From assembly GCA_965223325.1 (NCBI GenBank), contig CBDCWI010000001.1, positions 1,920,001 to 1,984,000 on the forward strand: DNA of 64,000 bases, written 5' to 3'. Made by a program: the position numbers and the translations under genes. The DNA is from Candidatus Multivoradales bacterium (GTDB taxonomy: Bacteria > Acidobacteriota > Thermoanaerobaculia > Multivoradales > Multivoraceae). The notes beneath the pieces are model-generated. The model was not told where the DNA came from and did no database searches. It saw only the letters and a list, made by a program, of their open reading frames with translations. Of this stretch, positions 1-38,209 are shown in pieces (the first letter of the stretch is position 1; each line of letters begins with the position of its first letter).

Positions 1-74
1 TCTTCCATCTGTCGCATCCCTCAGCGGTCGCGCCGCCACCGTGCGCCCGCGCGAGAACTGACCCCAACACCCTC

Positions 75-1649
75 ATGGCCACATCACCCGACATCACCAC
101 CGCGGCCCTCGAGTCGCGCGCCTGGCCCTTCGCCGAAGCCCAGAAAGTCGTTGAACGCCTGGCGGGCACGACGCCTGAATACGCACTCTTCGAGACCGGC
201 TACGGGCCCTCCGGCTTGCCGCACCTGGGGACTTTCGGTGAGGTTGCCCGCACCACCATGGTGTTACGCGCCTTCGAACTGCTCAGCGACATCCCGGCGC
301 GCATGATCTGTTTCTCGGATGACATGGACGGCCTGCGCAAAGTCCCCGACAACATCCCCAACGCATTGGAGATGGCGCCGCACCTGGGCAAGCCGTTGAC
401 GGAGGTCCCCGACCCCTTTGGCACCCACGAGAGCTTCGGTGCGCACAACAACGCGCGCCTGCGTTCCTTCCTCGATCAGTTCGGTTTCGAGTACGAGTTC
501 TACTCGTCGACGGAGTGCTACAAGAGTGGCCGTTTTGACGACGCACTGCGCACCGTGCTCAGAAACTACGACCGCATCCTGAAGGTCATCCTGCCGACAC
601 TGGGTGAGGAGCGCCGCAAGACCTATTCGCCGTTTCTTCCTGTTTGCCCCAAGACGGGCATCGTGCTCCAGGTGCCGATGCTCGAGGTGGACGCTGATGC
701 CGCAACAGTCACCTTCGAGGACTCCGAAGGCGAGCGCCAGACGGTCTCGGTCACCGGGGGCAACGTCAAGTGCCAGTGGAAGGTCGACTGGGGGATGCGC
801 TGGCACGCCCTCGGTGTCGACTATGAAATGTCTGGCAAGGACCTGATGGAGTCGGTGAAGCTGTCGAGCACCATCTGTCGCATCCTCGGCAGCAAGCCGC
901 CAGAAGGCTTTACCTACGAACTGTTCCTCGACGAGAACGGCGAGAAGATCTCAAAGTCGAAGGGCAACGGCCTGACGATCGAAGAGTGGCTGCGCTACGG
1001 CACTCCCGAGAGCCTGTCGCTCTACATGTTCCAGAGCCCGCGCAAGGCCAAGAAGCTCTCCTTCGACGTTATCCCTCGCACGATGGACGACTATCGCACC
1101 TGGGTGCGCAAGTACCACGAGCAGGAGCAGGTCGACCGGTTCAAGAACCCGGCGTTTCATATCCACGGCGGCGATCCGTCGGCCGAGGACATGCCGATCG
1201 AGTTCTCGATTCTTCTCAATCTGGTAGCCGGAGCCCATGTCGAAGAAAAGGACGCGCTGTGGGGGTTCGTCTCCCGCTACCTGCCCGACGCATCGCCGGA
1301 AACGCACCCGACACTCGACCGAATGCTCGATCACGCGCTGCACTACTACCGCGACTTCATCCTGCCCAACCAACAGTTCCGCCCCGCCACCGACACCGAA
1401 GCCGAAGCGATGCGTGAGCTGGCAGTTGAGCTCGCGAAGATCCCGGAGGGTGTCGAGCCCGAGCAGTACCAGACCGTCGTCTATGAGGTCGGCAAGCGCT
1501 ATCCCTTCGATTCGCTGCGCGACTGGTTCTCCGCCCTCTACCAGGTGCTCCTCGGTCAGAAACAAGGTCCACGCATGGGCAGCTTCATCGCGGTTTATGG
1601 GCGCGACGAGACGATCGCGCTGATTGCAGAGAAGGTCGGCGAGGCCTAG
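75..1649 (+). CDS. lysS: Lysine--tRNA ligase, class I
   Basis: ETGYGPSGLPHLGTFGEV (HIGH-like) and KISKSKGN (KMSKS-like) motifs, GPRMGSF near the C-terminus, 524 aa. Confidence 0.95.
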   Translation: MATSPDITTAALESRAWPFAEAQKVVERLAGTTPEYALFETGYGPSGLPHLGTFGEVARTTMVLRAFELLSDIPARMICFSDDMDGLRKVPDNIPNALEMAPHLGKPLTEVPDPFGTHESFGAHNNARLRSFLDQFGFEYEFYSSTECYKSGRFDDALRTVLRNYDRILKVILPTLGEERRKTYSPFLPVCPKTGIVLQVPMLEVDADAATVTFEDSEGERQTVSVTGGNVKCQWKVDWGMRWHALGVDYEMSGKDLMESVKLSSTICRILGSKPPEGFTYELFLDENGEKISKSKGNGLTIEEWLRYGTPESLSLYMFQSPRKAKKLSFDVIPRTMDDYRTWVRKYHEQEQVDRFKNPAFHIHGGDPSAEDMPIEFSILLNLVAGAHVEEKDALWGFVSRYLPDASPETHPTLDRMLDHALHYYRDFILPNQQFRPATDTEAEAMRELAVELAKIPEGVEPEQYQTVVYEVGKRYPFDSLRDWFSALYQVLLGQKQGPRMGSFIAVYGRDETIALIAEKVGEA

Positions 1650-1748
1650 CGACCCGGGCATCCGACGCACCTTCGGCTCGCTCCGAGAAGGGCCACAGCC
1701 ACCCAACGCCCAACACCGTCGACCGAAGAGGCGCGGTATCGTCGGCGA

Positions 1749-2252
1749 ATGAGCGACTCAGCCGCCACACTCTGCCTCCGCCCCGCCGAAGCGTCTGACA
1801 CGGCCCTCGTCCTCCGGTTCATTCGCGAACTGGCGGAGTACGAAAAGCTGCTCGACGAGGTGGTGGCAACCGAGGAGATGATCCGTGAGGCGCTCTTCGG
1901 CGACCACCCGACCATTGAGGTGACGATCGCTCTATGGCAAGGCGAACCGGCGGGCTTCGCGCTCTACTTCCACAACTTCTCGACTGTCCTGGGCAGGCAC
2001 GGCATCTACCTGGAAGACCTCTTCGTTCGGCCAGCGTTTCGGGGCCGGGGAATCGGCAAGGCGCTACTGGCGCATCTGGCACGCCTGGCGGTCGAACGCG
2101 GCTGCGGACGCCTGGAATGGGCGGTGCTCGACTGGAACGAACCGGCGATTGGTTTCTATCAGTCGATTGGCGCCCGCACGGTCGACGAATGGACGGCCTT
2201 CCGCCTGAGCGGCAAGGCACTCTCCGAACTCGCCGCAGAGCACCTCGCATGA
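1749..2252 (+). CDS. GNAT N-acetyltransferase (SSAT/diamine acetyltransferase-like)
   Basis: IRELAEYEK, YLEDLFVRPAFRGRGIGKALL acetyl-CoA motif, LDWNEPAIGFY. Stop overlaps the next start (ATGA). Confidence 0.9.
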   Translation: MSDSAATLCLRPAEASDTALVLRFIRELAEYEKLLDEVVATEEMIREALFGDHPTIEVTIALWQGEPAGFALYFHNFSTVLGRHGIYLEDLFVRPAFRGRGIGKALLAHLARLAVERGCGRLEWAVLDWNEPAIGFYQSIGARTVDEWTAFRLSGKALSELAAEHLA

Positions 2253-3124
2253 GCGAAGCGCCCTACGTCCGCTACATGGAACGAACCCGCGATTGGTATC
2301 GCGCCCTCGGCTACCAGGTGGACTACCGCTGGGCCGAGCGGCACGCACCGGAACTCACACGGCTTGCCCAGCCGCTCGCCGACACCGTCGTCGCCCTCGT
2401 CACCACGGCCAGCCTCGCAGCGCCCGAAGGCTGGAGTGAGGGGCGCCCGAGCCTCGGGAAGCGGGTATGGTCGATTCCCCTCGACCGACTCCCCGAGAAC
2501 CTCTTTACCGACGACACCAGCTGGGCGAAAGAATCGACCCACACGGACGATCGCGAGTCGTACCTGCCGCTCGCCCACCTGGAGCGCGCCGCCCTCGAGA
2601 ACCGCATCGGTTCGCTCGCCCCGCGGGTCCATGGCCTCCCCACCGAATACTCACATCGCGCAACCGAAGAACGCGACGCCCCCGAACTCCTCCTTCGCCT
2701 GCGAAGAGACGGAGCACAAGCCGCCCTCTTCGTGCCACTGTGACCGGTTTGCCACCAGACCGTGAGTCTGGCCGCCAGGTACCTGGAAGAACGGGGCATC
2801 GCAACGGTAGTAGCGAGCTCTGCTCGAGACATCACGGAGCACTGTGGAGCGCCGCGGGTCCTGTTCACCAATCACCCGTTGGGTAACCCCATCGGCAGTC
2901 CCTGGGATCGGGCCACGCAGAGGGAAAACACCCAGCGTGCGCTCTCGCTGCTCGAGTCTGCGGTCTCCCCCGGGGAGACTGTGCTCTCGCCGACTGAATG
3001 GCAGGGGAAAGCCAGCTGGCAGCAGGCGTACATGAGCCTCGACGGCGAGGACCCAGAAGAACTGCTCGAGCGCGGACGAGCCCGGCGGCGTTTGCGAGAC
3101 GAGGCCAACGGCCGCACGCGATGA
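2249..3124 (+). CDS. Selenoprotein of the glycine/sarcosine/betaine/D-proline reductase selenoprotein B family (UGA read as Sec, codon 165)
   Basis: ATG 2249 is in frame with TGA 2741-2743 and with ORF 2762..3124. Read-through gives [30 protein letters not shown], the UxxC signature of the GrdB/PrdB family. SECIS-like hairpin just downstream; ATGA overlaps at both ends. Confidence 0.88.
2744..2775 (+). promoter_or_regulatory. Candidate bacterial SECIS element
   Basis: Stem CCAGAC (2755-2760) / GTCTGG (2766-2771) closing loop CGTGA. The loop begins 17 nt after the UGA and has G at position 2, matching bacterial SECIS geometry. Confidence 0.7.
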
Positions 3125-4284
3125 TCCCCGAGAGCCCAGCGATCCCCGTCAGAACGAAGCTGTCCGCTGCCGAAGTGGCCTGGTTCAGCGCCCTGTGCTC
3201 AGACGACTACGAGTTCCTCGGGGTCCCTGATGGCAGACTGCGTAGCTCCTTCGCGCATTGCGCAGCGATCGTGCGTTCCGCCGACCGGCTTGGTTACGAC
3301 AACATCCTCCTGCCGAGCAGCTATCAGGTCGGCCAGGACCCACTCGTTTTTGCAGGCGCAGTCGCTCCGATGACCGAGCAGCTCTCCCTTCTGGCGGCAG
3401 TTCGTTGTGGTGAGGTGCACCCGCCCATGCTGGCGCGCGCGATTTCCACGCTCGACCATCTCCTCGAGGGTCGGCTGACGCTCAACATCATCTCTTCCGA
3501 CCTTCCGGGGGAAACGCTCGCGTCCGAAGCACGCTATCGCCGCTCGGCCGAAGTGATCGAGATTCTCCACCAGGCCTGGACCGCCGGGGCGATCGAGTTC
3601 CACGGTGAGTTCTACGACCTCGAGTTACCGACGACTGCACCGGTCGCGCCCTTCCAGCAGAACGGCGGTCCGCTCCTCTACTTCGGTGGCTACTCTGAAG
3701 CGGCGCGGGCCCTCTGTGCAAAACACTGCGACGTCTACCTCATGTGGCCCGATACCGAAGGCGGACTGGGCGCAACCATGCAGGACCTGGCCGAGCGCGC
3801 AGCAAAGTACGATCGCCAGCTCGACTTCGGACTGCGAATTCACGTCATTGTGCGCGAGACCGACGAAGCAGCGCGCCGGGCGGCAGATCGGCTGGTGTCG
3901 CGACTGGACGCCGAAGAAGGGTTGGCGATCAAGCAGCGCGCGCAAGACGGTGCTTCTGCCGGGGTGCTCCGCCAAGACGAACTGCGCAAGAAGAGCGACG
4001 ACGATTGGATCGAGCCCGAAGTGTGGAGCGGCATCGGTCGTGCGCGATCCGGCTGTGCAAGTGCCATTGTCGGTGACCCCGACACCGTGGCGCGCAAGCT
4101 CGAGCGCTACCTCGACCTGGGCATCCGCGCCTTCATCTTCTCCGGCTACCCCCACCTCGAAGAGTGCGAACTGTTCGCGCGCTATGTCCTCCCGAGGATT
4201 CCGCGCCTACGCCTCTCTGAGGTTCAGGGAAGGCGGCCCTCGAGCCCTCCTGAGACGCCCCTTACAACCGCCACGAGGCGCTAG
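3121..4284 (+). CDS. smoC: Luciferase-like FMN-dependent monooxygenase, sulfoquinovose monooxygenase (SmoC) type
   Basis: [56 protein letters not shown] and [13 protein letters not shown] closely match recalled Agrobacterium SmoC. True start is ATG 3121 (ATGA overlap), not 2998. Confidence 0.82.
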
Positions 4285-4300
4285 CCTTCAGAAGGTACCA

Positions 4301-5242
4301 ATGAGAAGAATTGCTCTTCACCGTAGCCAGACCGACTCTGGCGCCGAGCTATCACTTCCCGCCGTGACCTACGGCTGCTGGCGCCTGGCCGACGACCCCG
4401 CCGGAACAGAACCGGCGATCGTGCAGAAGAAGGTCGAGACCTGCCTCGAGCACGGCATCAGCGCCTTCGACCACGCCGACATCTACGGCGACTACCGGTG
4501 CGAGGCACTCTTCGGAGACCTCCTCGCGCAGCAACCACAGCTCCGCGAACAGATCCAGTTGATCAGCAAGACCGACATCGCACTCGTCTCGGCGTCGCGC
4601 CCCGAACATCGGGTCAAGCACTACGACACCTCGGCGCGGCACATCGAAGAGTCGGTCGAGCGCTCGCTCAGAAACCTTCGAGCCGAAACCCTGGACCTCC
4701 TCCTGCTGCACCGGCCCGACCCCCTGATGGACGCCGACGAGACGGCCCATGCCCTGCAGGCACTCTTCGAGAGCGGCAAGGTCACCCACTTCGGGGTCTC
4801 CAACTTCCCCTCGTCACAGTTCGAGCTCCTTCAGGCCCGCCTGGACCTGCCGCTGGTCACGAACCAGATCGAGCTGTCACTCCTCGAACACGCAGCATGC
4901 ACGAACGGCACCCTCGACTTCCTGGCGCAACACCGCATTGCACCGATGGCCTGGTCCCCTCTTGGCGGTGGACGCTTGTTTACGGGCTCCAGCGACCGAA
5001 TACGCGGCGTACGTTCGGTGCTCGACGCCCTGGCAGTGGAACGCGAGCTCGAGGTCTCCGACCGCTCGCGCATGCAACTCGCCCTGGCGTGGATCCTGCG
5101 CCTTCCTTCGCAGCCGATCGTGGTCATTGGAACCAACAAATCGCAACGCATCGCCGCCTCGGCTGAGGCTTCCGAGATCGAACTCAGTCGCCAGGAGTGG
5201 TTCCGGCTCTACGAAGCTGCTCTAGGCCAGGAAGTTCCGTGA
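4301..5242 (+). CDS. smoB: Aldo/keto reductase, 6-oxo-glucose reductase (SmoB) type
   Basis: FDHADIYGDY, RVKHYDTS, LLLHRPDPLMDADET, GVSNF, NQIELS, PMAWSPLGGG. Directly follows the smoC-like gene. Start ATG 4301 lies inside the longer track ORF. Confidence 0.78.
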   Translation: MRRIALHRSQTDSGAELSLPAVTYGCWRLADDPAGTEPAIVQKKVETCLEHGISAFDHADIYGDYRCEALFGDLLAQQPQLREQIQLISKTDIALVSASRPEHRVKHYDTSARHIEESVERSLRNLRAETLDLLLLHRPDPLMDADETAHALQALFESGKVTHFGVSNFPSSQFELLQARLDLPLVTNQIELSLLEHAACTNGTLDFLAQHRIAPMAWSPLGGGRLFTGSSDRIRGVRSVLDALAVERELEVSDRSRMQLALAWILRLPSQPIVVIGTNKSQRIAASAEASEIELSRQEWFRLYEAALGQEVP

Positions 5243-5294
5243 CTGGCAGATGACGGTTCCAGGCACTTCCTTCCAACAACCGGAAGTGGGCTAG

Positions 5295-7097
5295 ATGCTT
5301 CAAACCCTCGATCTGGTCGTCTTCTTCGCCGCTCTCGCTGCGGTGATGGGGATCGGCCTGTGGGCGGCCCGCAACGAAGACACGAGTGAGGATTTTTTCC
5401 TCGCCGGCCGCACCATTCGTTGGTGGGGTGTGGCCGGTTCGGTCTTTGGCTCGAACGTCAGCGCCAACCACCTTGTGGGAATGCTCGGCATTGGCTTCTC
5501 GATCGGTTTCGCCCAAAGCCATTTCGAACTCGGCGCCATTGCCGCCTTGATGCTCCTGGCCTACGGCTTCCTACCGGTCTACCGCAAACTCGGGGTCTAC
5601 ACCCTGTCGAGCTACCTCGGCCAGCGCTACGACGGTCGAAGTCAAACGCTCTATGCGCTCATTCTCCTGGTGGTTGCAGTCGTTCAGCTGACGGCCGGCT
5701 TCTACATCGGCTCGCGCTCACTCGGGCTCCTGCTCTCGGGCACCGTGCTCGAGCTGAGCTACGCCGTCGGAGTCGTCGCGCTGGTCATCGTGACCGCGAC
5801 CTACACGGTCGTCGGCGGGCTCAAAGCTGTCATCTACACCGATGTCATGCAGTCGATTCTGCTCTTGTTTGCCGGGGTCGGGATTGCGATCCTGACCTTC
5901 CAACAGCCGGAAGTGGGTGGCTGGCTGGGCATGATGGCGCACGACGGTGCCCGCCAGGTCGCTGAGCAGAAGATGCACCTCTACCTGCCGAGCTCGCACC
6001 CCGACTTGCCGTGGTCGGGAACGCTCTCGGGGCTTCTGCTCTTGCACTGCTTCTACTGGTCGACCAACCAGACCATCGTGCAGCGCACCCTCGCTGCACA
6101 CTCGGACCGCGACGCGCGCCTGGGCATTATCGTCGCCGGCTTTCTGAAGCTGCTCATTCCGTTCTTTGCGATCGCCGGCGGTGTGGCGGCGGCGCAGCTT
6201 TTCGAGATCCGCTTTCCCGATCGTCTGATCGACCCCGACGCGGCGACCCCAGAGCTCATTCGAACGGTCGTCCCGGCCGGTTACGGATTGGTAGGCATCG
6301 TGATGGCAGGGCTGTTGGGTGCCATTCTGTCGTCGATCGACTCGCTGGTGAACTCGGCCTCGACGCTTTTCACCTTCGACATCTACAAACGCTTTGTGAA
6401 ACCCGAGGCGGACGACAAGGAGTGTCTCCTGGTGGGCAAAGTGGTGCTCACCGTTCTTCTGCTCGTGTCGGCGACCCTCGCGCTCCTGACCTATGACCCC
6501 ACCGGTGGCGGCAACTTCTTCCTGCGGGTTTCGAGTCAGGCCGGCCATTTCACCCCCGGCCTGGTAACCGCCTTCGCGCTCGGCATGTTCTGGCGCGGCG
6601 CCAAGGCAAGGGGGGCCGCGGTTTCGATTGTGCTCGCACCCGTCTTTTCCTGGGGCATCGTTGCCGCCCACCATGCCTGGTTCGGCACCGTGCCCTGGAT
6701 CGCCTCGTTGCTCGGTAGTGACCTGAACTTCCTGCACCGCGTCCTGGCCACGGTGCTCTTTGCTGCCCTGGTTCACATCCTGGTGAGTCGCCTTTCTCCG
6801 AGCAGCAGCGATAGCGCGGTTGGCGAACGGTTCACCTTCTTCGCTCTCTCGGGTGCCGACCCTGTCCAGTTCAGCCGGCTCCTGGGAGTCCTCGTTGGGC
6901 TCGCGATCGCCTGGCTGGTACTCGGCATCACCGTCGATCGCGGCATGGTCTCGAACAGTTTCGCTGCTCTGGTCGCTGCCGCCACCGCCTGGATACCTTT
7001 CGCGCCCTATCTCGTTGGCCGGTCCCTTCGCGACGACCGTTGGTGGGCGGCCACCCTCTGTAGCGCCACCATGGCCATCATGTTCTTCTTTTTCTAG
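5295..7097 (+). CDS. Sodium:solute symporter (SSS/SLC5), probable sulfoquinovose/SQ-glycoside importer
   Basis: EDFFLAGR, YTVVGGLKAVIYTDVMQ, YWSTNQTIVQRTLAA, SSIDSLVNSASTLFTFDIY; many TM helices. Substrate inferred from context. Confidence 0.9.
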   Translation: MLQTLDLVVFFAALAAVMGIGLWAARNEDTSEDFFLAGRTIRWWGVAGSVFGSNVSANHLVGMLGIGFSIGFAQSHFELGAIAALMLLAYGFLPVYRKLGVYTLSSYLGQRYDGRSQTLYALILLVVAVVQLTAGFYIGSRSLGLLLSGTVLELSYAVGVVALVIVTATYTVVGGLKAVIYTDVMQSILLLFAGVGIAILTFQQPEVGGWLGMMAHDGARQVAEQKMHLYLPSSHPDLPWSGTLSGLLLLHCFYWSTNQTIVQRTLAAHSDRDARLGIIVAGFLKLLIPFFAIAGGVAAAQLFEIRFPDRLIDPDAATPELIRTVVPAGYGLVGIVMAGLLGAILSSIDSLVNSASTLFTFDIYKRFVKPEADDKECLLVGKVVLTVLLLVSATLALLTYDPTGGGNFFLRVSSQAGHFTPGLVTAFALGMFWRGAKARGAAVSIVLAPVFSWGIVAAHHAWFGTVPWIASLLGSDLNFLHRVLATVLFAALVHILVSRLSPSSSDSAVGERFTFFALSGADPVQFSRLLGVLVGLAIAWLVLGITVDRGMVSNSFAALVAAATAWIPFAPYLVGRSLRDDRWWAATLCSATMAIMFFFF

Positions 7098-8235
7098 CGC
7101 TGCGGACTGCCGCGTCTTCGAGTAGCTCCGACATCTCGACCGGGCGACCCAACTCGATCGATCGATGGGCCGCGCAACCAATCGCCACCGCCTGCGTCCC
7201 GTCTGCAACGCCGACTTCGACCGGCCCGTCGCCTGCGATTGCCATGAGGAAAGCGCGGTGCTGCCAGTAGGTCGCACCATGGTGGTGACCGGCGGCGAGT
7301 AGCCGTTCGTCGATGTCGATCGTCTCGCTCGTCACCCGATCCGGCCGCATGCCAACGAACCCATGTTTGTCCGTCGCTTGCATCGCGAGATCACGCCGGC
7401 CAATACGAACCGTCGAATCCGGTAGCAGGCACTCGAGTTTGCCGGCATCTCCGGTGACCGAGATCTCCTGTTCGTGAAGTGAGGCTTCGGCGAACATACA
7501 GAGGTCGAGTGACGCGCGGATGCCTCCGTCGAAATCGACGACGACAAACGCGTTGTCGAGAATGTCGGGCACCTCGCCGTCGTAGCGCTCGTCGAGATGG
7601 TTGACATCTTGCGCACCACTGGCGTAGACCCGCTGAGGTGCCGCTCCCGTGATGCGAGCCATCAAATCGAAGAAGTGGCAGCATTTCTCCACCAGCGTTC
7701 CGCCGGTGTTGCGATTGAAGCGGTTCCAGTCACCGACTTTGGGAAGAAACGGAAAGCGGTGCTCACGGATCGCCACCATGCGCACTCGTCCTACCGTGCC
7801 GGCGTCGACTTCTTGGATGAGCCGCGCCACCGGTGGCATGTAGCGGTACTCCATACCGATCCACACCACCCCGTCATGGCTCGCTGCCTTTTCTTCGACC
7901 ACCCGACAATCAGCCAGGGTCGTACACATCGGCTTCTCTACCAGCAGATGGAGCCCACTCCCCCACAACCCGTCCAGAACCTCGGCATGGGTGTGGTTTG
8001 GCGAGGCGATCACCACAGCATCGACCAGACCGGAGCGCGCCAGCTCGAGGTGATCCTCGAAAGAAACGGGCTCGGCCGTTGGGTTGAGTGACAGGTGCAG
8101 GTCTTCCGCCCACTTCCGCGACCGTGGATGCGGGTCGCAAATCGCGGTGACCTCGGCGCCAGGGAGCAGCGCGATGTTGCGCATGTGCTCGAGGCCCATG
8201 AGACCCGTTCCAACGATGCCGTAGCGTGTAGTCAT
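7078..8235 (-). CDS. Gfo/Idh/MocA oxidoreductase, probable NAD+-dependent sulfoquinovosidase (GH188-like)
   Basis: GIVGTGLMG Rossmann motif, EKPM, REHRFPFLPKVGDWNRFNRNTGGTLVEKCCHFFDLM. Convergent with the smoCB-SSS operon with a 20 bp overlap. Family is secure; SQase function is inferred. Confidence 0.75.
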   Translation of the reverse strand: MTTRYGIVGTGLMGLEHMRNIALLPGAEVTAICDPHPRSRKWAEDLHLSLNPTAEPVSFEDHLELARSGLVDAVVIASPNHTHAEVLDGLWGSGLHLLVEKPMCTTLADCRVVEEKAASHDGVVWIGMEYRYMPPVARLIQEVDAGTVGRVRMVAIREHRFPFLPKVGDWNRFNRNTGGTLVEKCCHFFDLMARITGAAPQRVYASGAQDVNHLDERYDGEVPDILDNAFVVVDFDGGIRASLDLCMFAEASLHEQEISVTGDAGKLECLLPDSTVRIGRRDLAMQATDKHGFVGMRPDRVTSETIDIDERLLAAGHHHGATYWQHRAFLMAIAGDGPVEVGVADGTQAVAIGCAAHRSIELGRPVEMSELLEDAAVRSARKRRT

Positions 8236-8351
8236 TGCCAGTGAGGTGCCCCGGTCTGTCGGGTTGGTTGCGAGGATTCCGTCGGAAGGGTATCGCTCCT
8301 TCCGCGCCGAAAACCGATCTGGCTACCAAGGGCCGATCGACCTGCAAGTCC

Positions 8352-10349
8352 CTACAAACGCGACTCGACGTACTCGAGGCTCGCTTTCGCCCGCGGATCG
8401 TCGGGTGCAAGAGCAACCAGTTGGGTAAAAACCTCCTTGGCCTCACGCCAGCGCTCCTGACTCGCAAGCAGCACTCCGAGATCGGCGAGTGCAGGCAGGT
8501 AGCGGGCGTCGCGCGCGAGAACGCTGCGGAGCCCTTCTTCGGCGACGTCGAGATCGCGCCGCCCCATGTAGACGGTGGCGAGTTGGTAGAGGAGCTCGAT
8601 GTTGGCCTCGTCTCTCGCCAGGTTGTCGCGAGCGCTCTCGAGTGCCTCGTCCATTCTCTCGAGGGCCAGGTAGGTGCTGGTGCGAAGTGCCCGCATCGAC
8701 AGATCGCTCGGGTCAGCCTCGATGGCTAGCGGAACGAAGGTCGCCGCCTCGTCGAGGCGCCCGAGGTCAAACGACAGGCGTGCCAGGGCTCTCGTGTACA
8801 GGCCGGAGCCGCCGGAGATAGCGAACGCACGACGGTAGGCCTCGTAGGCTGGCTCGGGCTGGCCCGATTCTTCGTAGGCCACGGCGAGGAACTGCCAGGC
8901 GTCGAGCAGTCGCGGATGGCGGTTGACGGTTCGCGCCAGAAGTTGCACGGCGTCCTGCGCCCTTCCCAGCCGCAGACTGTCGATGCCTCGCTGCAGGGTC
9001 GCAAGTGACTCGATCTCCTGACGCGGGTCGGGCAGGTCGGTCGCTGGCAAAGTGGCTTCGCTGCTCAAGTAGCCGAGCGACAAGAGCGCCTCGCGATCTT
9101 CCTCTTCTGCGGCGCTGCTATCTCTAGCCTGGGGCGGCTCGATCGAGGCCTCCGCCAGGGCAGCTCGCAGAGGCTCTGCTCGCTGCCCACCGAGGTCGTT
9201 CTGCTCGCCCGGATCTACTGCGAGGTCGAAGAGCTCACCGTAGGCACCTTCGATCCAATGGAGGTCACCCTCGATTACCGAGGTCAGTCCATGCCATCCC
9301 AGGCGCAGCTGCGGATAGAACGTCTCGGCGAAGATCGGGCGCTGGGGATGTTCCGCGAGCTCGAGAAGAGTCGGCGCCGGGTTGCCGAGAGGGGCAGCAC
9401 CGCCAGGGGCCACGAGTGCGAGCAAGGTCCCAGGCACGTCGCTCAGTTGAGCAGGCTCGGTCACCGACTGGCCTCTGCGCTCGGCGCCCGGCAACTTGAC
9501 GATCAGCGGAACCTGAAGAGCCTCGCGGTGCAGCAGGATGCCGTGTTGGTCCTCGCCATGCTCGCCGAGACCTTCCCCGTGATCCGAGAGTAGAACGACG
9601 ATCGCCTCGTCGTAACGCTCGAGACGACGCAGCTCTGCCAAGAGCTCGCCCACCAGGGCATCGACCGCTGCGATCTCGCCGTCATAAGGGTGTGCGACCT
9701 GATCAAAAGGAGGAGGCGGCTCATACGGCGCGTGCGGCTCGTAGAAATGCACCATCAAAAAGAACGGCTCTTCGCCGAAACCGTTCAGTAACTCTCTGGC
9801 GCCCTCCAGCACCTCGCGACCATCGCGCTGGGTTTCAGCAGCGGTCGCACGCACGAGCTGCTCGATCTCGTCGTCGTAGAACTCGAAGCCCTGAGCGATT
9901 CCTGTCGCACGCCGCATGACGAAACTCGAAACCACCGCCGCCGTCCGGTAGCCCTCGGCCACCAGACGCTCAGCAAACGTCTCTATGTCTTCCGCCAGGC
10001 GAAAGCCCGAGTTGTCTCGCACCCCGTGTTGATGCGGCAGGAGGCCAGTCAAGAGCGACGCATGGGCCGGCAGAGTGAGTGGAATCGGGCTGTAGGCGCG
10101 CTCGAACAGCAGACTGTCGGCGCGCAATCGATCGATGGCCGGCGTGGCGACGCCATCGTAACCATAGACCGGCAGATGGTCGGAGCGCAGGGTATCGATT
10201 GAGATCAGGAGAATCGGCGGCTTTGTCCCAGCCACAGCCTCCGACCCGGGACTCTCCTGCGGCTCAGCTCCCTGACAGGTCAGTAGAAGGAAGCCGGCGC
10301 CGGCCGCCAGGAGAGCGTGTTGCCGTTTCGATGTCCACACGCTGTTCAT
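8352..10349 (-). CDS. Sulfatase-like (alkaline phosphatase superfamily) protein with C-terminal TPR repeats, probable lipoprotein
   Basis: LLISIDTLRSD, SPIPLTLPAHASLLTG, HFYEPHAPY, LSDHGEGLGEHGE, TPR-like helices, LLLTC lipobox-like signal. Start taken at ATG 10349. Confidence 0.85.
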   Translation of the reverse strand: MNSVWTSKRQHALLAAGAGFLLLTCQGAEPQESPGSEAVAGTKPPILLISIDTLRSDHLPVYGYDGVATPAIDRLRADSLLFERAYSPIPLTLPAHASLLTGLLPHQHGVRDNSGFRLAEDIETFAERLVAEGYRTAAVVSSFVMRRATGIAQGFEFYDDEIEQLVRATAAETQRDGREVLEGARELLNGFGEEPFFLMVHFYEPHAPYEPPPPFDQVAHPYDGEIAAVDALVGELLAELRRLERYDEAIVVLLSDHGEGLGEHGEDQHGILLHREALQVPLIVKLPGAERRGQSVTEPAQLSDVPGTLLALVAPGGAAPLGNPAPTLLELAEHPQRPIFAETFYPQLRLGWHGLTSVIEGDLHWIEGAYGELFDLAVDPGEQNDLGGQRAEPLRAALAEASIEPPQARDSSAAEEEDREALLSLGYLSSEATLPATDLPDPRQEIESLATLQRGIDSLRLGRAQDAVQLLARTVNRHPRLLDAWQFLAVAYEESGQPEPAYEAYRRAFAISGGSGLYTRALARLSFDLGRLDEAATFVPLAIEADPSDLSMRALRTSTYLALERMDEALESARDNLARDEANIELLYQLATVYMGRRDLDVAEEGLRSVLARDARYLPALADLGVLLASQERWREAKEVFTQLVALAPDDPRAKASLEYVESRL

Positions 10350-10513
10350 CAGCCTAAGTCTGCCGAAACGATCGAAACGAACGGCCCGACGGTACACGGC
10401 CCTGGGACGAGTCGCTGACTGCGATTGCACCGATCTCGAGCCCTTGATGTGAAACAAACGCCGTTTCGAGGCGTCCAGCACCTTGATCCCGTAAATCCGA
10501 GAGAGGAAGGTCC

Positions 10514-13033: not shown

Positions 13034-13939
13034 ATGAGCAACGCACTGGAACACCCTGGAAGACTCGGCGTCTGGACGTGGATCGACGCCTTCTCCTCTG
13101 AACAAGCCGCGGACTTTGCCAAGCAACTCGAAACGTGGGGCTACTCCACCCTTTGGATCCCCGAAGCCGTCGGGCGTGATCCCTTCGCCCTGATCGGCTA
13201 TCTGGCAGGCCAGACCGAAACTCTCAACTTCGCCACCGGCATCGCCAACATCTACGCCCGTGACCACGTCACGATGAAGGCGATTCATCAGACTCTTTCC
13301 GAGATGCTGCCAGGCCGTTTCATTCTCGGTCTGGGCGTCTCGCACCCACATCTGGTTTCGCGCCTGCGCGGGCACGAGTGGAAGAAACCAATTCCCAAGA
13401 TGCGTGGCTACCTGGAAGCGATGAAGGGTGCGATCTATCACGGGCCGAAGCCTGAGCTCGAAGCTCCCATCGTGATCGCAGCGTTACGTCCGCTGATGAT
13501 GGGGCTCGCGCGCGATCATGTGCGCGGTGCCCATCCCTACCTGGTGACTCCAGAACATACCCAGCGCGCGAGAGAAATCCTCGGTGACGGCCCGTGGTTG
13601 TGCCCGGAACAGAAGGTGATTCTCGAAACTGACGCCGAAACCGCACGAGGCGTTGCGCGCGGCCAACTGACGCCCTACCTGCGGGCGCCCAACTACCAGA
13701 ACAATCTTCGCGAGATCGGCTTCGAGGACAGCGACTGGCAAGACGGAAAGGCGAGCGATCGCCTGATCGACGCGCTCGTCGCCTGGGGCGATGTCGACAC
13801 TATTCGCGAACGCATCGAGGCGCACTGGAGTGCCGGCGCCGACCATGTTTCGATCCAGCCGTTCCGTCCCGACGGAGCTCCCGGGCCCGACATGAAAGCA
13901 CTCGAAGTGTTGGCACCGGCTACCGAGCGTGCGAGCTAG
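13034..13939 (+). CDS. LLM-class oxidoreductase, probable F420-dependent (TIGR03620/MSMEG_4141-like)
   Basis: GYSTLWIPEAVGRDPF, ATGIANIYARD, GRFILGLGVSH, GAHPYLVTPEHT, AGADHVSIQ. Confidence 0.8.
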   Translation: MSNALEHPGRLGVWTWIDAFSSEQAADFAKQLETWGYSTLWIPEAVGRDPFALIGYLAGQTETLNFATGIANIYARDHVTMKAIHQTLSEMLPGRFILGLGVSHPHLVSRLRGHEWKKPIPKMRGYLEAMKGAIYHGPKPELEAPIVIAALRPLMMGLARDHVRGAHPYLVTPEHTQRAREILGDGPWLCPEQKVILETDAETARGVARGQLTPYLRAPNYQNNLREIGFEDSDWQDGKASDRLIDALVAWGDVDTIRERIEAHWSAGADHVSIQPFRPDGAPGPDMKALEVLAPATERAS

Positions 13940-14211
13940 AGGCCTGCTGAAGAACTCCCGCGAGGCTGAGCGCGGGGATCTGGGCTCTCTGTTCGTGCCG
14001 ACGCGAGGAGGCGATGTCTGTGCATCGTTGACGAGTCGTCGGTGCGGACGGCGAGCCCAAACCCCCGCGCCCGCTGGGTTTGACGGCGTGGGCCTCGCTG
14101 CAGCACGGCGAACGCTCTACGATGGAGCACAGCATCGCATTCGCGCACGGCGCACCACATCGAGACCCACGGCGCTCAAACTCAGCCACACGAGAGTTCT
14201 TCAGCAAGCCC
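13940..14211. mobile_element. MITE-like non-autonomous element (272 bp) with terminal inverted repeats and CTAG flanks
   Basis: Left end AGGCCTGCTGAAGAACTC (13940-13957); right end reverse complement GGGCTTGCTGAAGAACTC (14194-14211). CTAG on both sides (13936-13939, 14212-14215). Two long internal imperfect hairpins; no transposase. Confidence 0.75.
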
Positions 14212-14216
14212 CTAGC

Positions 14217-15926
14217 TTGCTCACCGCGTTTGCGGTGATGCTCCTGACTCTGCCGCTGGCCGCGCAGGAACCACCAGCGCCGCAACCCGAGGCCGACCAG
14301 GACCGCGAAGCTCCGGGCGACCTGATCACCACCGAGACCTCGCTCGGAAAAGTCGTCGGTACCGAAACCTTCCTGGGCGGTTTGAGCTTCCGCGGTATTC
14401 CGTACGCCGAGCCCCCGGTTGGATCACTACGCTTCAGGGCGCCGAAGGCAAAGAGCCCCTGGCCTGGCATCTTGAACGCCAAGGAGTTCGGGCCAGCTTG
14501 CCCGCAGATCGCAGATCCACTCGAAGGGATCCCGGAAGAACTCGGTGCCCTCGACAACGAAGACTGTCTGTCGATCAACGTCTGGACCCCGGGTCTCGAC
14601 GAGGCCGCGCGCCCGGTCATGGTGTGGATTCACGGTGGTTCCAACGTCGCCGGCTCCAGCCGCTCACCGCTCTACGATGGCTCGGTGCTTTCTGCCCGTG
14701 GCGATGTGGTGGTGGTGTCGTTCAACTACCGCCTCGGCCTGTTGGGTTGGCTCGACGTCACTCAGTTCGGCGGCCAGAACTACGCCGGCGCTGCCAACAA
14801 CGGCATGCGCGACCAGATTCTGGCGCTACGCTGGGTGCAGGAGAACATCGGCGCTTTCGGCGGCAACCCCAACAACGTCACCGTCTTCGGAGAGTCGGCC
14901 GGGTCGATGGCGGTTTCAACCTTGCTCACCTTGGCGCGTCCCGAACGCTTGTTTCGCGCCGCGATCCTGCAAAGCGGCGTGACCTTCTCCACCGACCTCG
15001 AAAGCGCCAAGGCGATGGCTGCCGACTTCTTCGAGCGTGCCGCCATCACCGAGTCCAAACAGCTCAGAGAGATGGCGACTGCCGATCTTCTAGCGGCACA
15101 AAAGCGCGCTCTCGATACCTACCAGGGAACCGACGGTGACGTCATCTTCGTCACGCGGCCGATCGAAGAACCTCTGACCGCCACTCCCTTCGAGGCTGTG
15201 CGTGCCGGGAATGCCGCCCAGGTATCGCTGGTGCTCGGGACTACCGAGGACGAGATGCGCTACTGGTTGCACTACCTACCAGAGCTGCGCGATACCCATC
15301 CTGCCGACCTCGGCCTCGGCCTGTCTCCGGAGAACCTCGAGGCATTGCTGCTCCCCTACCGCGAGAACACCCAGTACAGCTCTGCCGGTGATCTGTCCCT
15401 GGCGCTCCTCAGCGACCTCTACTTCCGCATGCCGACTCTCCTACTCGCCGAGGCGCAGGCGGTTCATACGCCGAACGTCTGGCACTATCTCTTCGCCCGG
15501 GACATCCCGCGCTCTGATCTCGGCGCCGCTCATGCCGCCGAGCTACCTTTCGTCTTCGGAACCCTCGGCCTTCGCGTCGCCGCCCCGCTGACAGGCCTTC
15601 CGCTCGATCACCAGGAACGCTCACAGAACGCGAAACTCGCCACGGCAATGCAAGACCTGTGGCTCGGCCTCGCGATCTCGGGCGATCCCAACGCCAGCGC
15701 CAACGAGGCCCTGCCGCTGTGGTCACGCTACGACGCAGCCGAACGCGCGACCCTGCGAATCGAGGACGACTTCACCGTGGTTTCTGATCCCGGCGCTCCC
15801 ATGCGCGAAGCGTGGCTCGCGGGGTATGGCCGTGAACTCCTGCGCCAGGTCTTTGGGCCCGGTCTCTTCGCTGCGTCTCCTGGCGAGTCCTCCGAGCCCA
15901 GTGCGGGAGGTGACAACGTTCCGTAG
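14217..15926 (+). CDS. Type-B carboxylesterase (PnbA-like), secreted
   Basis: GIPYAEPPVGSLRF, EDCLSINVW, VMVWIHGG, GESAG nucleophile elbow, AAHAAEL; signal peptide ending LAAQE. Start uncertain because the MITE abuts it (TTG 14217 chosen). Confidence 0.85.
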   Translation: MLTAFAVMLLTLPLAAQEPPAPQPEADQDREAPGDLITTETSLGKVVGTETFLGGLSFRGIPYAEPPVGSLRFRAPKAKSPWPGILNAKEFGPACPQIADPLEGIPEELGALDNEDCLSINVWTPGLDEAARPVMVWIHGGSNVAGSSRSPLYDGSVLSARGDVVVVSFNYRLGLLGWLDVTQFGGQNYAGAANNGMRDQILALRWVQENIGAFGGNPNNVTVFGESAGSMAVSTLLTLARPERLFRAAILQSGVTFSTDLESAKAMAADFFERAAITESKQLREMATADLLAAQKRALDTYQGTDGDVIFVTRPIEEPLTATPFEAVRAGNAAQVSLVLGTTEDEMRYWLHYLPELRDTHPADLGLGLSPENLEALLLPYRENTQYSSAGDLSLALLSDLYFRMPTLLLAEAQAVHTPNVWHYLFARDIPRSDLGAAHAAELPFVFGTLGLRVAAPLTGLPLDHQERSQNAKLATAMQDLWLGLAISGDPNASANEALPLWSRYDAAERATLRIEDDFTVVSDPGAPMREAWLAGYGRELLRQVFGPGLFAASPGESSEPSAGGDNVP

Positions 15927-25350: not shown

Positions 25351-27390
25351 TCAGCCGTCGACGTAACCCAGGGCCTCGAGGCGCTCGAGGGTTTCCTGGT
25401 CGTAGGCGGCGCCGGTGTTCTCCTCGATCTCGCGCAGGCTCTCCCACAGCGAGGCCAGGAGCGCACGGAACTCGCGGACCCTTCTCTTCTTGCGCAGGCG
25501 CAGGTTGTCGCGCTCCTTCGGATCCTGATCGAGGCGGTAGAGCTCGTCGTACGAAGGGCGCTTCGGGAAGTGGATCAGCTTCCACGGCGGCGCACGCAGA
25601 ACCCGCATTTCCGGCCCTGTCTGGTTGGCAGCCGAAAGCACCGGCGGCCGTGGCGGCTGGCGTTCACCGGCACGCTTGCGCGTCAGGTGAACTTCGAAGC
25701 TGCGCCCGGAGAGTTGGCCGGGTTCTATCGGCAGGTCGTAGCGTTCGGCCATCGTCGGAAAGATGTCGATGTGTGAAAGGAGCATCGCATCCTGGACCGT
25801 CTCCTCGGGAGCGCCTGCCCTTCCAGGGCGCGGTCGGACCAGGAGCGGAACGCGCAGGAGCTCCTCGTACATCGCATGTCCGTGTCCGTAGGTCTCTGGC
25901 TCTCGATCTCCGGTGGTTCGTGCACGATGCTCATCCGAAGGCATCATCTCGCCATGATCGGAGACGATCCAGATCTCGGTTTGCTCCGGCGGGAGGAACG
26001 ACGCTGTGTTCTCGAGCAGAGCGGCGAGCTCAGCAACGACGAAACGCGTTTCGTTCCAGTAGAGCTCCTCCTGCCCCGCCGCCCAGGGAGCCGGTGGTGG
26101 TTCAGCACGCGGGCGTTCATGCAGCGGAGCGTGCGGATCCATGAAGTGAACCCAGGCAAACAACGGTAGGCCACTCTTGGTCACTTCCGGCAGGCGACGT
26201 TCGAACAGCCGCCGCACACGCGGTGCAGGCGCATAGATTTCGCGCTCGATCCAACCAGCGCGCACGAACGGGGTGAGCGTTGGAAGCTTGCCGGTAGTGG
26301 CCTGGAGGACTTCGAAGCGATCGAAGCCGCGGGAGATGCCACTCGCTGGGTGGAGAAGCGGGTTGGTCACCAGCCCTTCGGTGGCGTAGCCCGCCGCCCG
26401 AAAGCTCTCGGCCAGGGTGCCGACTTCAGGCGAGAGGGCACCGATCGGGCGACCGATGTCCAGGCCACGGGTCAGTCCGAAGCCGTGCTCCTCTGGGTAG
26501 CGGCCGGTATGAATCGAGCCCATTGAGGGCGCCGTCCAGGGGGCCGCCGCGACCAGCTGGGAGAACTCGACGATCGGCCCGAGGGCCTTCTGGAGACGCG
26601 CGCCTTCGGCGGTCTCAGCCAGCACCTGGGTAAACACGTCGTGGCGTTGGGTGTCGATGACCAGCAACAACACGTGCGGCGCATCCGACGCGGCCTCGAC
26701 ACGCTCGGCCGGCGCGTCGAGCTGCCGGGATTCCGACGGCCAACGATCGGCGCGCACCAGGGCAGTGACCACGACAGCGGCCAGCAGCGCTCCGATCGCC
26801 AACCCTGCGACCAGCGCCCGAACAGAAAGGCGGCGCGCCGCGAAGATCAGCCCGAGCGCGGCGAAGGCAAGGAGAGCATCGAGTGCGAGGGCGAGCGGTT
26901 CGAAGGGTAGTCGCACCAGGTTGCGGTTGACCGCAAGCCCGAGGGCGATCGCCAAAGAAAAGACCCAAGCGCTCCAGAAACGTCGGGTGCGCTCGAGGCC
27001 ACCTGCCACCCCCACTGCCACCAGCGGAATGGCCGCAACCACGACGACAGTGACGAGAAGCGCCGCCACCATGCCCACCCGGCCTGCCAGCGCCTGTTGT
27101 ACCCGTTCGAAGACGGCCGGCAGCTGGATGGCGAGCATCGTCCAGGCGAGAAGCTCCGTCGAACGGAGAGGCGCAGGTGCAGTCCGCGCGGCGATCCGGG
27201 CGCCGAAACCAAGGAGCATCGCAACGACTGAGGCCGCAACCACTCCCAACAACAGGTAGAGCGGCAAGTGCTCGACTTGCGGCAACAACCACTCCCCCAG
27301 GGTGAGGTAGACGGACACCACATCGATGAGCACTGAACAGCAGCCGGCCAGGAGGCCAACCATGGGCACGCGCAAGAAAGAGTTGTTCAA
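25351..27390 (-). CDS. Membrane-anchored sulfatase-like protein (multi-TM N-terminus)
   Basis: About 7 TM helices, then LLLVIDTQRHD, AAPWTAPSMGSIHTG, HFMDPHAP, SDHGE, HGHAMYEELLRVPL, LEALGY. Confidence 0.83.
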   Translation of the reverse strand: MNNSFLRVPMVGLLAGCCSVLIDVVSVYLTLGEWLLPQVEHLPLYLLLGVVAASVVAMLLGFGARIAARTAPAPLRSTELLAWTMLAIQLPAVFERVQQALAGRVGMVAALLVTVVVVAAIPLVAVGVAGGLERTRRFWSAWVFSLAIALGLAVNRNLVRLPFEPLALALDALLAFAALGLIFAARRLSVRALVAGLAIGALLAAVVVTALVRADRWPSESRQLDAPAERVEAASDAPHVLLLVIDTQRHDVFTQVLAETAEGARLQKALGPIVEFSQLVAAAPWTAPSMGSIHTGRYPEEHGFGLTRGLDIGRPIGALSPEVGTLAESFRAAGYATEGLVTNPLLHPASGISRGFDRFEVLQATTGKLPTLTPFVRAGWIEREIYAPAPRVRRLFERRLPEVTKSGLPLFAWVHFMDPHAPLHERPRAEPPPAPWAAGQEELYWNETRFVVAELAALLENTASFLPPEQTEIWIVSDHGEMMPSDEHRARTTGDREPETYGHGHAMYEELLRVPLLVRPRPGRAGAPEETVQDAMLLSHIDIFPTMAERYDLPIEPGQLSGRSFEVHLTRKRAGERQPPRPPVLSAANQTGPEMRVLRAPPWKLIHFPKRPSYDELYRLDQDPKERDNLRLRKKRRVREFRALLASLWESLREIEENTGAAYDQETLERLEALGYVDG

Positions 27391-36811: not shown

Positions 36812-38209
36812 ATGAAGATCGTTCCGGCGAGCCTGACCGCGCTCTTGCTGGCGGGCTGCGGTGGTCTCCCCGAGCCAGTGACCCGGCCCGATCTCGCCGT
36901 TCGCGAGAGAGTTCCCCTGGTGTTCGTCCCTGGCGTGTTGGGTAGCAAGCTCGAGGACCGCCACACCGGACGTTCAGCCTGGGGAAAAGGCATCGACGTG
37001 CTCCTGCCACGCGACAACGGCTACGACCTCGCCGTGCCACTCGACTGGCAAGCGAGCAAAGGGCTCCCGCGGTTGGCAGCCAACGGCGTCGTCGACCGCG
37101 TGCGTCTCTTGACGGTGCGTCGCGACATCTACATTCAGTTGCAATGGTTGTTCGAGGCCAACGGTTATCGGCTTGGCTCACAGGCTGAGCCGCGCGCACA
37201 GGACGACTTCTACATGTTCTCCTACGACTACCGGCGTTCCAACGTCGCGAGCGCGATCGAGCTCTTCCGGTTCCTCGACAGTCTTCGCCGGGTCCGCGGC
37301 GAAGAGGTCCTGACCGTTGACCTGATGTGCCAGAGCAACGGCTCTCTGATCTGCCGCTACCTGAGCAAGTTCGGCGGCGTGCCCCTGGACGTAGCAGCCG
37401 CGGGCCGCGCCTTGGCACCCACCTCGATCCGCATCCGGCGACTGGCCCTCGCCGGCACATCGAACGGTGGCAGCCTGCGCACCTTTCGGGAGATCGACCG
37501 TGGACGCCAGTACCTCGGCGGCCTGGGTCGCAAGGTCCGCCCCGAAGTCACCTTCAGCTTCCGTTCGCTGTACCAGGACCTTCCTCTCGATGACACAGGC
37601 CTGTTCCTCGACAGGACTGGAAAACCGCTGGGCATCGACCTCTACGACGCCCACACCTGGCAGCGCTACGGGTGGTCGGTGTGGAGGACCGACGCACAAG
37701 CACGACTCAGAAAACCGAGGGCGCGTCGGCTCTTCGGCGACGGAGTGGAGCAACTCGCTTTTCTCGAAGAGCAGCTCAGGGCGGCAAGGGTTTTTCAAGA
37801 GACCATCATGCGCGACCCCCCGGGCTATGACGTCGAAGCGATCCTCTCGATTCAAAACGTCACGAAGCCCACCGCGGCGCGTGCCGTCGTGCGCGAGCTC
37901 ACCCACCGCAAAGGGTCGCGCTTGTTGTTCGATAGCGACCCCGACGCGGCCCAGCTCAGCGCTTCGGTTCGCGAACAACTGACCGAGCCGGGCGACGGCC
38001 ACGCGACGGTCGCCAGCCAGTTGGCGTTATCACCTGCCGAAAGGGACCGGCTGGTGGGTCCGACGGTCGCCGTGGGCGGCGAACACCATGAGGTGGTCCT
38101 GCAGCGAGAAGCTCACCACCGAATGCTCGAGTTCTTCCTGGCGCCCAACCTCGAGGCCGCCGTCCGCGCTGCCCGGCCGGTCGACCGCGCCGGTCCCGAA
38201 GAGCGGTGA
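36812..38209 (+). CDS. Alpha/beta-hydrolase lipoprotein, LCAT/lipase-acyltransferase-like
   Basis: LLAGC lipobox, PLVFVPGVLGSKL, FSYDYRRSN, CQSNG elbow, PGDGHAT. Confidence 0.75.
   Translation: MKIVPASLTALLLAGCGGLPEPVTRPDLAVRERVPLVFVPGVLGSKLEDRHTGRSAWGKGIDVLLPRDNGYDLAVPLDWQASKGLPRLAANGVVDRVRLLTVRRDIYIQLQWLFEANGYRLGSQAEPRAQDDFYMFSYDYRRSNVASAIELFRFLDSLRRVRGEEVLTVDLMCQSNGSLICRYLSKFGGVPLDVAAAGRALAPTSIRIRRLALAGTSNGGSLRTFREIDRGRQYLGGLGRKVRPEVTFSFRSLYQDLPLDDTGLFLDRTGKPLGIDLYDAHTWQRYGWSVWRTDAQARLRKPRARRLFGDGVEQLAFLEEQLRAARVFQETIMRDPPGYDVEAILSIQNVTKPTAARAVVRELTHRKGSRLLFDSDPDAAQLSASVREQLTEPGDGHATVASQLALSPAERDRLVGPTVAVGGEHHEVVLQREAHHRMLEFFLAPNLEAAVRAARPVDRAGPEER

Follow-up and report, generated by a model that had tools for sequence, protein, structure and literature searches.

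In the sulfoquinovose (SQ) monooxygenase (sulfo-SMO) pathway of Agrobacterium tumefaciens, encoded by smoABCDEFGHI, SmoC converts SQ into sulfite along with 6-oxo-glucose, and the aldo-keto reductase (AKR) SmoB reduces the latter to glucose (Sharma et al. 2022, PMC8795539). In related clusters of the Roseobacter clade, a homolog of SqgA, an NAD+-dependent sulfoquinovosidase of family GH188, is found beside smoC, and no GH31 sulfoquinovosidase is present (Kaur et al. 2023, PMC10755693). A separate body of work has placed selenoproteins named “proline reductase PrdB,” with a UxxC motif in which U is selenocysteine (Sec), among the most abundant selenoprotein families of marine samples (PMC1088965, PMC2398784). 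Here, we analyze a locus at which relatives of both systems meet. In a 64,000-nucleotide (nt) stretch of the genome of Candidatus Multivoradales bacterium, a member of the Acidobacteriota (contig CBDCWI010000001.1, positions 1,920,001 to 1,984,000; the whole stretch is called the window below), a PrdB/GrdB-like selenoprotein gene runs directly into a smoC gene. The initial annotation had proposed that the selenoprotein, at a place where the flavin reductase SmoA would be expected, may be a redox partner, a scavenger of sulfite or peroxide, or part of a selenium-dependent variant of sulfosugar catabolism. Our results favor another scenario with fairly good confidence: two unrelated modules of known kinds have been juxtaposed by chance and are probably transcribed together.

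The genes in question lie in close succession on the plus strand. A GNAT-family N-acetyltransferase gene (1749-2252, +; 167 amino acids [aa]; Pfam Acetyltransf_1, 8e-22) is joined to the selenoprotein gene (2249-3124, +; 291 aa) by the ATGA at 2249-2252, in which the GNAT stop codon TGA (2250-2252) overlaps the selenoprotein start codon ATG (2249-2251). The same arrangement recurs at 3121-3124, where the selenoprotein stop TGA (3122-3124) overlaps the ATG of smoC (3121-3123). The smoC gene (3121-4284, +; 387 aa), which is predicted to encode an FMNH2-dependent (FMN, flavin mononucleotide) SQ monooxygenase, is separated by 16 nt from the ATG at 4301 of a smoB-like AKR gene (4301-5242, +; 313 aa; Pfam Aldo_ket_red). 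On all of these points the initial annotation was accurate: the sequence bears out the ATGA chaining and the 16-nt gap exactly, and the names given to the genes (UxxC GrdB/PrdB-like selenoprotein, smoC, and smoB) agree with Pfam, NCBIfam, and PDB sequence scores. Because of the 4-nt overlaps, the GNAT-selenoprotein pair and the smo genes are probably cotranscribed and translationally coupled. A scan of positions 1-8600 returned no promoter-like site and seven terminator-like sites, against 5.5 expected. Among contig fragments from public sequencing runs (X5-X8) that match positions 1-8400, one 151-nt piece spans the GNAT/selenoprotein junction, and none of those listed, all of them short, spans 3121-3124. 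The runs X5-X8 belong to four other studies and contain, at low depth, short fragments of which the longer ones are identical to the window and a few short ones diverge; thus, several samples contain the source organism or a strain very close to it.

The pairing of the selenoprotein gene with smoC was found at none of 196 other loci. Namely, it is absent from 80 loci of the selenoprotein family in other genomes (the best 80 of at least 555 in species-representative genomes, with flanks of up to 10 kb), from 29 additional PrdB-like loci found across 41 related genomes (with flanks of 1.5 kb), from the five smoC loci of the same bacterial family, from two more smoC loci recovered among 401 sampled genomes of the phylum, and from 80 metagenomic smoC loci whose products are 57-70% identical to that of the window. 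By tblastn, homologs of SmoC, SmoB, GNAT, or SSF were detected near none of the 80 family loci, one of which has a weak, 46-bit match to a luciferase-like monooxygenase (LLM), and a GNAT homolog adjoined the family at none of the 80 + 29 loci. The survey of smoC neighborhoods that the initial annotation suggested thus shows no co-occurrence with the selenoprotein and, within the sets examined, a linkage confined to this genome; a role as redox partner, as stand-in for SmoA, or as part of a selenium-dependent variant of sulfosugar catabolism finds no comparative support.

The distribution of the two modules leads to the same picture. Among the 24 genomes of the same bacterial family, smoC orthologs (55-74% identity) occur in 5, versus 23 genomes with PrdB-like genes; since the latter are nearly universal and the former patchy, there is no phyletic link between them. 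At the five smoC loci of these relatives, smoC is accompanied by an SSF (sodium:solute symporter) gene and a GH188 gene in three cases and by an AKR gene in two, and all five loci lack PrdB-like and GNAT genes. The SSF orthologs adjoining smoC in three relatives are 68-70% identical to the window protein, and the GH188 orthologs are 55-62% identical. What lies upstream of smoC differs from genome to genome, being a fatty acid desaturase gene in genome G010 and sqgA in G003. In the former (contig C4 of G010, locus L130), the smoC ortholog begins about 9 nt after the desaturase gene (6627-7904 and 7913-9043); here, too, the smo module lies up against an unrelated gene upstream of it. The 80 metagenomic smoC loci include SmoB-like genes in 21 cases, adjacent to smoC as in the window, SSF genes in 22, and Gfo-type genes in 17, with no PrdB-like or GNAT homolog at any of the 80. 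The selenoprotein family, for its part, has no conserved neighbor: the largest cluster of neighboring genes, encoding AMP-binding enzymes, occurs at 13 of the 80 family loci. Its close same-strand neighbors (33 of the 34 listed were scanned) are a mixture of alcohol and acyl-CoA dehydrogenases, a helicase, a peptidase, HpcH/HpaI aldolases (four), PilZ proteins (three), DinB proteins (two), and a single LLM. As far as their domain assignments indicate, these neighbors are unrelated to sulfonate metabolism.

The initial annotation took a flavin reductase to be expected next to smoC. Two-component FMN monooxygenases can take free FMNH2 from unrelated reductases. A Pfam scan of 44 open reading frames (ORFs) of the window detected no flavin reductase, as the initial annotation had stated, and none was found among 18 ORFs neighboring smoC at the relatives' five loci. 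Near metagenomic smoC genes, an FMN_red domain was found at 4 of 80 loci (L162, L168, L169, and L201) and PF01613 at none, in a crude screen of 143 ORFs of 130-330 aa within 4 kb of smoC, with less than 2 kb available on both sides at 16 of the 80 loci. A 2026 survey calls genomes sulfo-SMO positive on the presence of SmoB and SmoC alone, leaving out SmoA. The premise that a reductase should be found here is therefore weak; as judged from the loci at hand, smoC genes of this clade as a rule lack a linked flavin reductase. This rarity of linkage matters for any pathway-calling rule that demands SmoA. The genome of the window does encode a candidate source of reduced flavin, since a single PF01613 flavin reductase match is located on another contig (C2:585019), beside an aminotransferase gene. 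No match to PF03358, the SsuE-type family, was found in the genome. Chance juxtaposition is favored because the smo module and the selenoprotein family each occur elsewhere in the absence of the other, and because the gap left by the missing reductase is the rule.

In a search of PDB sequences, the smoC product scores 465.6 bits to 7OLF and 453.9 bits to 7OH2, the SmoC proteins of A. tumefaciens and R. oryzae, respectively (Sharma et al. 2022, PMC8795539); the next best are the MsuD entries 7JV3/7K14, with 233.8 bits, and SsuD, with approximately 195 bits. The residues reported for the FMN/sulfonate site of RoSmoC, Tyr136, Ser189, Trp206, Arg236, His238, Tyr341, and His343 (PMC8795539), are kept in the window protein at seven of seven positions, counted by hand on the alignment and assuming that the chain numbering is that of the paper. 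As MsuD shares these residues, they are no proof of SQ specificity. By its scores, the 3121-4284 product is nonetheless a SmoC-type SQ monooxygenase. The smoB-like product scores 275.5 bits to SmoB (7BBY/7BBZ), which is level with YdhF-type AKRs, so the score alone cannot separate the two; we regard it as a probable 6-oxo-glucose reductase. Downstream lies the gene for a sodium:solute symporter (5295-7097, +; 600 aa; Pfam SSF, 3.6e-63), which is a probable importer of SQ or SQ glycosides. It is followed on the opposite strand by a gene overlooked in the initial annotation (7078-8235, -), whose product, of the Gfo/Idh/MocA fold, scores 392.1 bits to 8QC3 and 376.6 bits to 8QC2, versus 83.8 bits to the next, unrelated member of the fold. 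These two entries are ArSqgA and FlSqgA, NAD+-dependent sulfoquinovosidases of GH188 (Kaur et al. 2023, PMC10755693), and SqgA genes have been reported in sulfo-SMO clusters without a GH31 enzyme (PMC10755693). A profile search found no GH31 domain in the genome. The minus-strand gene completes a known cluster type: the SSF transporter, SqgA, SmoC, and SmoB are predicted to make up a complete sulfo-SMO cluster of the kind already described. The SSF gene and sqgA are convergent, with their 3' ends overlapping by 20 nt (7078-7097).

Compared with the described clusters, that of the window resembles the A. tumefaciens operon in having a SmoC ortholog followed by a SmoB-type AKR, with the same predicted chemistry. 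Unlike that operon, it has no smoA, an SSF symporter replaces the ABC transporter with SmoF, and a GH188 enzyme is present instead of the GH31 sulfoquinovosidase SmoI (PMC8795539). The counting rule used in that study, which pairs an SQ monooxygenase with a GH31-type sulfoquinovosidase homolog, would miss the window cluster. The closest named homolog of its SmoC is labeled Acidobacteriota, so a proteobacterial host is improbable. The closer likeness is to the GH188 clusters of the Roseobacter clade, in which a SqgA homolog also lies beside smoC and no GH31 sulfoquinovosidase is present. The window cluster differs from those described there in its host lineage and in the convergent orientation of sqgA and the transporter gene (PMC10755693).

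The selenoprotein is a distant relative of PrdB and GrdB. It matches the NCBIfam model TIGR04483 (PrdB) with 59.3 bits (3.8e-16), below the curated cutoff of 300, in an alignment that covers model positions 19-235 of 238, and it scores 16.2 bits to TIGR01918, below the cutoff of 65.45. No Pfam family was matched at an E value of ≤0.01, PF07355 (GRDB) included, and neither Pfam nor NCBIfam gave a match to a family that binds flavin or NAD(P)H. Full-length homologs of about 291 aa are plentiful at 43-54% identity, and a protein-cluster search with a natural Cys homolog (P0026) returned only GRDB-type “glycine reductase family” clusters. The active-site motif U-x-x-C is present as U165-P-V-C168. 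On these grounds the protein is assigned to the GrdB/PrdB superfamily as a stand-alone member: its neighbors are the GNAT gene and smoC, and no PrdA/GrdE or GrdA partner subunit is encoded nearby. GrdA (PF04723) and PrdA/GrdE-type (PF09338) domains had no match in the genome, in a search to which 14 control genomes were equally silent and which had no positive control. The protein shares distant homology and a Sec residue in a U-x-x-C motif with clostridial D-proline reductase PrdB and with GrdB/GrdF/GrdH, which makes a selenol nucleophile with a resolving Cys likely. It departs from clostridial PrdB and GrdB in its 59 bits versus the cutoff of 300, in having no Pfam GRDB match, and in neighbors that are not Stickland genes. 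A confident AlphaFold model (pLDDT 84) places Sec at the start of the helix 166-181, just past the strand 158-162. No solved relative was found in the PDB by sequence or by profile, and Foldseek with the model returned nothing from the PDB at an E value of ≤0.001; in a wide fold search, all matches were of a generic alpha/beta kind, resembling LacI/periplasmic-binding and SDR proteins, with a best Z score of 9.4 that lies within the background usually seen, and the fold offers no guide to function.

Automatic gene calling yields only a 164-aa N-terminal fragment (P0004) for this gene, which raises the question of whether the single in-frame TGA at 2741-2743 is a true stop that leaves a split or decayed gene, consisting of the 164-aa ORF and a 120-aa ORF starting at GTG 2762. 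Several observations oppose this explanation. In an alignment of 21 sequences, Sec165 coincides with an invariant Cys of the 20 homologs, the motif C/U-P-V-C-H-Q is invariant (L-U-P-V-C-H-Q in the window protein), and conservation continues past Sec165 to the C terminus. The codon at this position in the best 80 family loci is TGA in 62, TGC in 12, and TGT in 5, the motif being missing in 1, and the loci with TGA are spread across several phyla. Sec forms share the hairpin ACCAGAC-CGUGA-GUCUGGU 11-12 nt after the TGA. In the window, a hairpin resembling a Sec insertion sequence (SECIS) begins 11 nt after the TGA, at 2755-2771 (+), with a 6-bp stem (CCAGAC/GUCUGG) and a CGUGA loop in the centroid fold. 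Across 41 Sec-form loci the seven-pair helix is paired in 98.6% of cases. Compensatory changes, with both partners altered, are seen in 10 cells and fall at two of the seven pairs, and sliding the 3' partner by one to three columns leaves only 15-33% pairing. Most of the 17 Cys forms alter the 3' arm, as in AGC-CUG instead of AGU-CUG. Folded as a single sequence, the SECIS region gains no stability over shuffled versions (z = 0.25), which would suit a true stop; support for the hairpin comes from comparison, not from energy. SelA, SelB, and SelD are encoded in the genome, each above its curated cutoff, as is a tRNA-Sec (71.9 bits), which ARAGORN also calls as tRNA-SeC with anticodon tca, so that the Sec machinery is complete. 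Finally, the family is present in 28 of the 41 related genomes, often in several copies, and 50 of its 54 matches there contain exactly one TGA. A true stop is therefore very improbable, and comparative evidence strongly supports the prediction that the TGA is genuinely read as Sec. In Sec forms, the SECIS constrains which codons encode the conserved His-Gln-Thr-Val-Ser-Leu stretch; among them, even though the genomes are GC rich, is the GC-poor codon AGU for Ser.

The family to which this selenoprotein belongs is expanded in the bacterial family of the window organism, with up to six PrdB-like matches per genome (G010) and five in both G007 and G009. The window genome has a second PrdB-like copy (G000:C2:1756960-1757745; L121). 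One apparent PrdB-like fusion, at locus L102, was set aside, its long open frame looking like read-through of a GC-rich frame. The window family is likely the marine “proline reductase PrdB” UxxC family, as judged from published descriptions rather than from a comparison of sequences, because the two share the motif, the PrdB/GRDB-type homology, and an excess of Sec forms. The ratio of Sec to Cys forms is 62:17 here; it was reported as 42:1 for the Sargasso Sea (Zhang et al. 2005, PMC1088965) and 235:110 for the GOS samples (Zhang and Gladyshev 2008, PMC2398784). Both families also occur in oxic environments. The accounts of the family in these marine surveys give it neither a function nor a gene context, and the literature located on PrdB-like UxxC proteins contains no established function.

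According to the favored scenario of chance juxtaposition, the SSF transporter would import SQ or SQ glycosides, SqgA would release SQ, and SmoC, with FMNH2 and O2, would cut the C-S bond to yield sulfite and 6-oxo-glucose, which SmoB would reduce to glucose. FMNH2 would diffuse to SmoC from a general flavin reductase encoded elsewhere, for which one PF01613 gene is available. By homology, Sec165 would serve as the nucleophile of the selenoprotein and Cys168 as the resolving residue, with the selenenyl sulfide rereduced by a thioredoxin-type system. In this single lineage, the smo module would have ended up head to tail with the pair of GNAT and selenoprotein genes. The selenoprotein would then probably be neither a dedicated part of SQ catabolism nor a replacement for SmoA.

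The main competing explanation is a lineage-specific recruitment, in which the selenoprotein, perhaps along with the GNAT protein, became an accessory to SQ oxidation. It might scavenge the H2O2 that uncoupled FMNH2 oxidation produces, or use its selenol/thiol pair to deal with sulfite or with a reactive 6-oxo-glucose adduct. We consider recruitment unlikely, given that the pairing recurs at none of the 196 other loci, that the family's neighbors have no connection with sulfonate metabolism, and that the relatives retain the smo module with no selenoprotein. It does draw support from the ATGA coupling to smoC and from a redox motif that is invariant across the family, and several features of the data weigh against chance juxtaposition. 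The overlaps leave no intergenic space for a promoter or terminator, so the tie to smoC expression is probable and could be selected. The window copy is divergent (49-52% identity to the best copy in any relative) and, at no more than 52% identity, could be a specialized paralog. An AhpC/TSA peroxiredoxin gene is located just beyond smoB at 2 of the 80 metagenomic loci (L170:10403-11059 and L188:2466-3092), and a rhodanese gene beside smoC/smoB at 1 of the 80 (L209:6268-6729); because such genes sometimes adjoin smoC/smoB, a helper that deals with peroxide or sulfite is not absurd. GNAT genes unrelated to that of the window likewise adjoin smoC/smoB at L140:6973-7827 and L141:7044-7898, which are near-identical, and at L175:10064-10531 and L212:11528-12076. 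The surveys relied on crude ORF calls (GC3-weighted calling of neighbors) with flanks of 1.5-10 kb, and in a search that returned at least 7980 SmoC homologs at an E value of ≤1e-100, the nearest ones, about 75% identical, were encoded on ENA contigs outside the surveyed loci. Moreover, the genome has no SsuE-type reductase, and the PF01613 protein is only a presumed partner of SmoC.

This last point would also suit a direct replacement of SmoA, with the selenoprotein feeding reduced flavin to SmoC as part of a selenium-dependent two-component monooxygenase. The window indeed has no flavin reductase, and the selenoprotein gene is directly upstream of smoC. Yet most smoC loci of the clade have neither a linked reductase nor the selenoprotein, a PF01613 reductase is encoded elsewhere in the genome, the selenoprotein shows no match to families that bind flavin or NAD(P)H, and enzymes of this class are generally served by free FMNH2 from unrelated reductases. 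Hence, we see hardly any room for such a replacement. Chance juxtaposition accompanied by cotranscription remains the explanation to which we give most weight.

Other features of the window lie outside this question. Upstream of the GNAT gene is lysS, encoding a class I lysyl-tRNA synthetase (75-1649, +). In relatives G010 and G007, none of the window's genes follow the corresponding gene, and in G001 (of the same genus), G003, and G006, three of the five relatives, a class I enzyme was not found at an E value of ≤1e-100; synteny among relatives is lacking in this part of the chromosome. Genes for sulfate esters are abundant in the window, with two sulfatase-TPR fusions, a third sulfatase, and two sulfotransferase-family genes, located at 8352-10481 (-), 25351-27390 (-), 57336-59690 (-), 38206-39372 (+), and 49428-50555 (+). 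The window also encodes a second, shorter LLM (301 aa), whose gene (13034-13939) extends 11 nt past the listed start of a carboxylesterase-family gene (13929-15926).

Overall, both modules look like known kinds rather than a new selenium-dependent pathway. A selenoprotein recruited to SQ oxidation and made in step with SmoC, clearing peroxide, sulfite, or the 6-oxo-sugar, or even feeding electrons to the flavin, strikes us as distinctly improbable. If this held true, sulfosugar catabolism would have its first selenium-dependent step, bringing selenium into the sulfoquinovose cycle, and there would be a first functional clue to a large, very common, uncharacterized selenoprotein family. The locus in any case provides a clean GH188-type sulfo-SMO cluster without smoA in an acidobacterial genome, that is, in a host outside the groups named in the literature that we consulted, the Rhizobiales, the Roseobacter clade, Actinomycetota, and Spirochaetota. 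A second feature of the locus is a Sec gene with good support, cut to 164 aa by automatic annotation, and numerous selenoprotein genes of related genomes would be shortened in the same manner by standard gene calling. For members of this family, the codons fixed in the Sec forms, AGU among them, as opposed to the drifted AGC or other codons of most Cys forms, may serve as a simple DNA signature of Sec.

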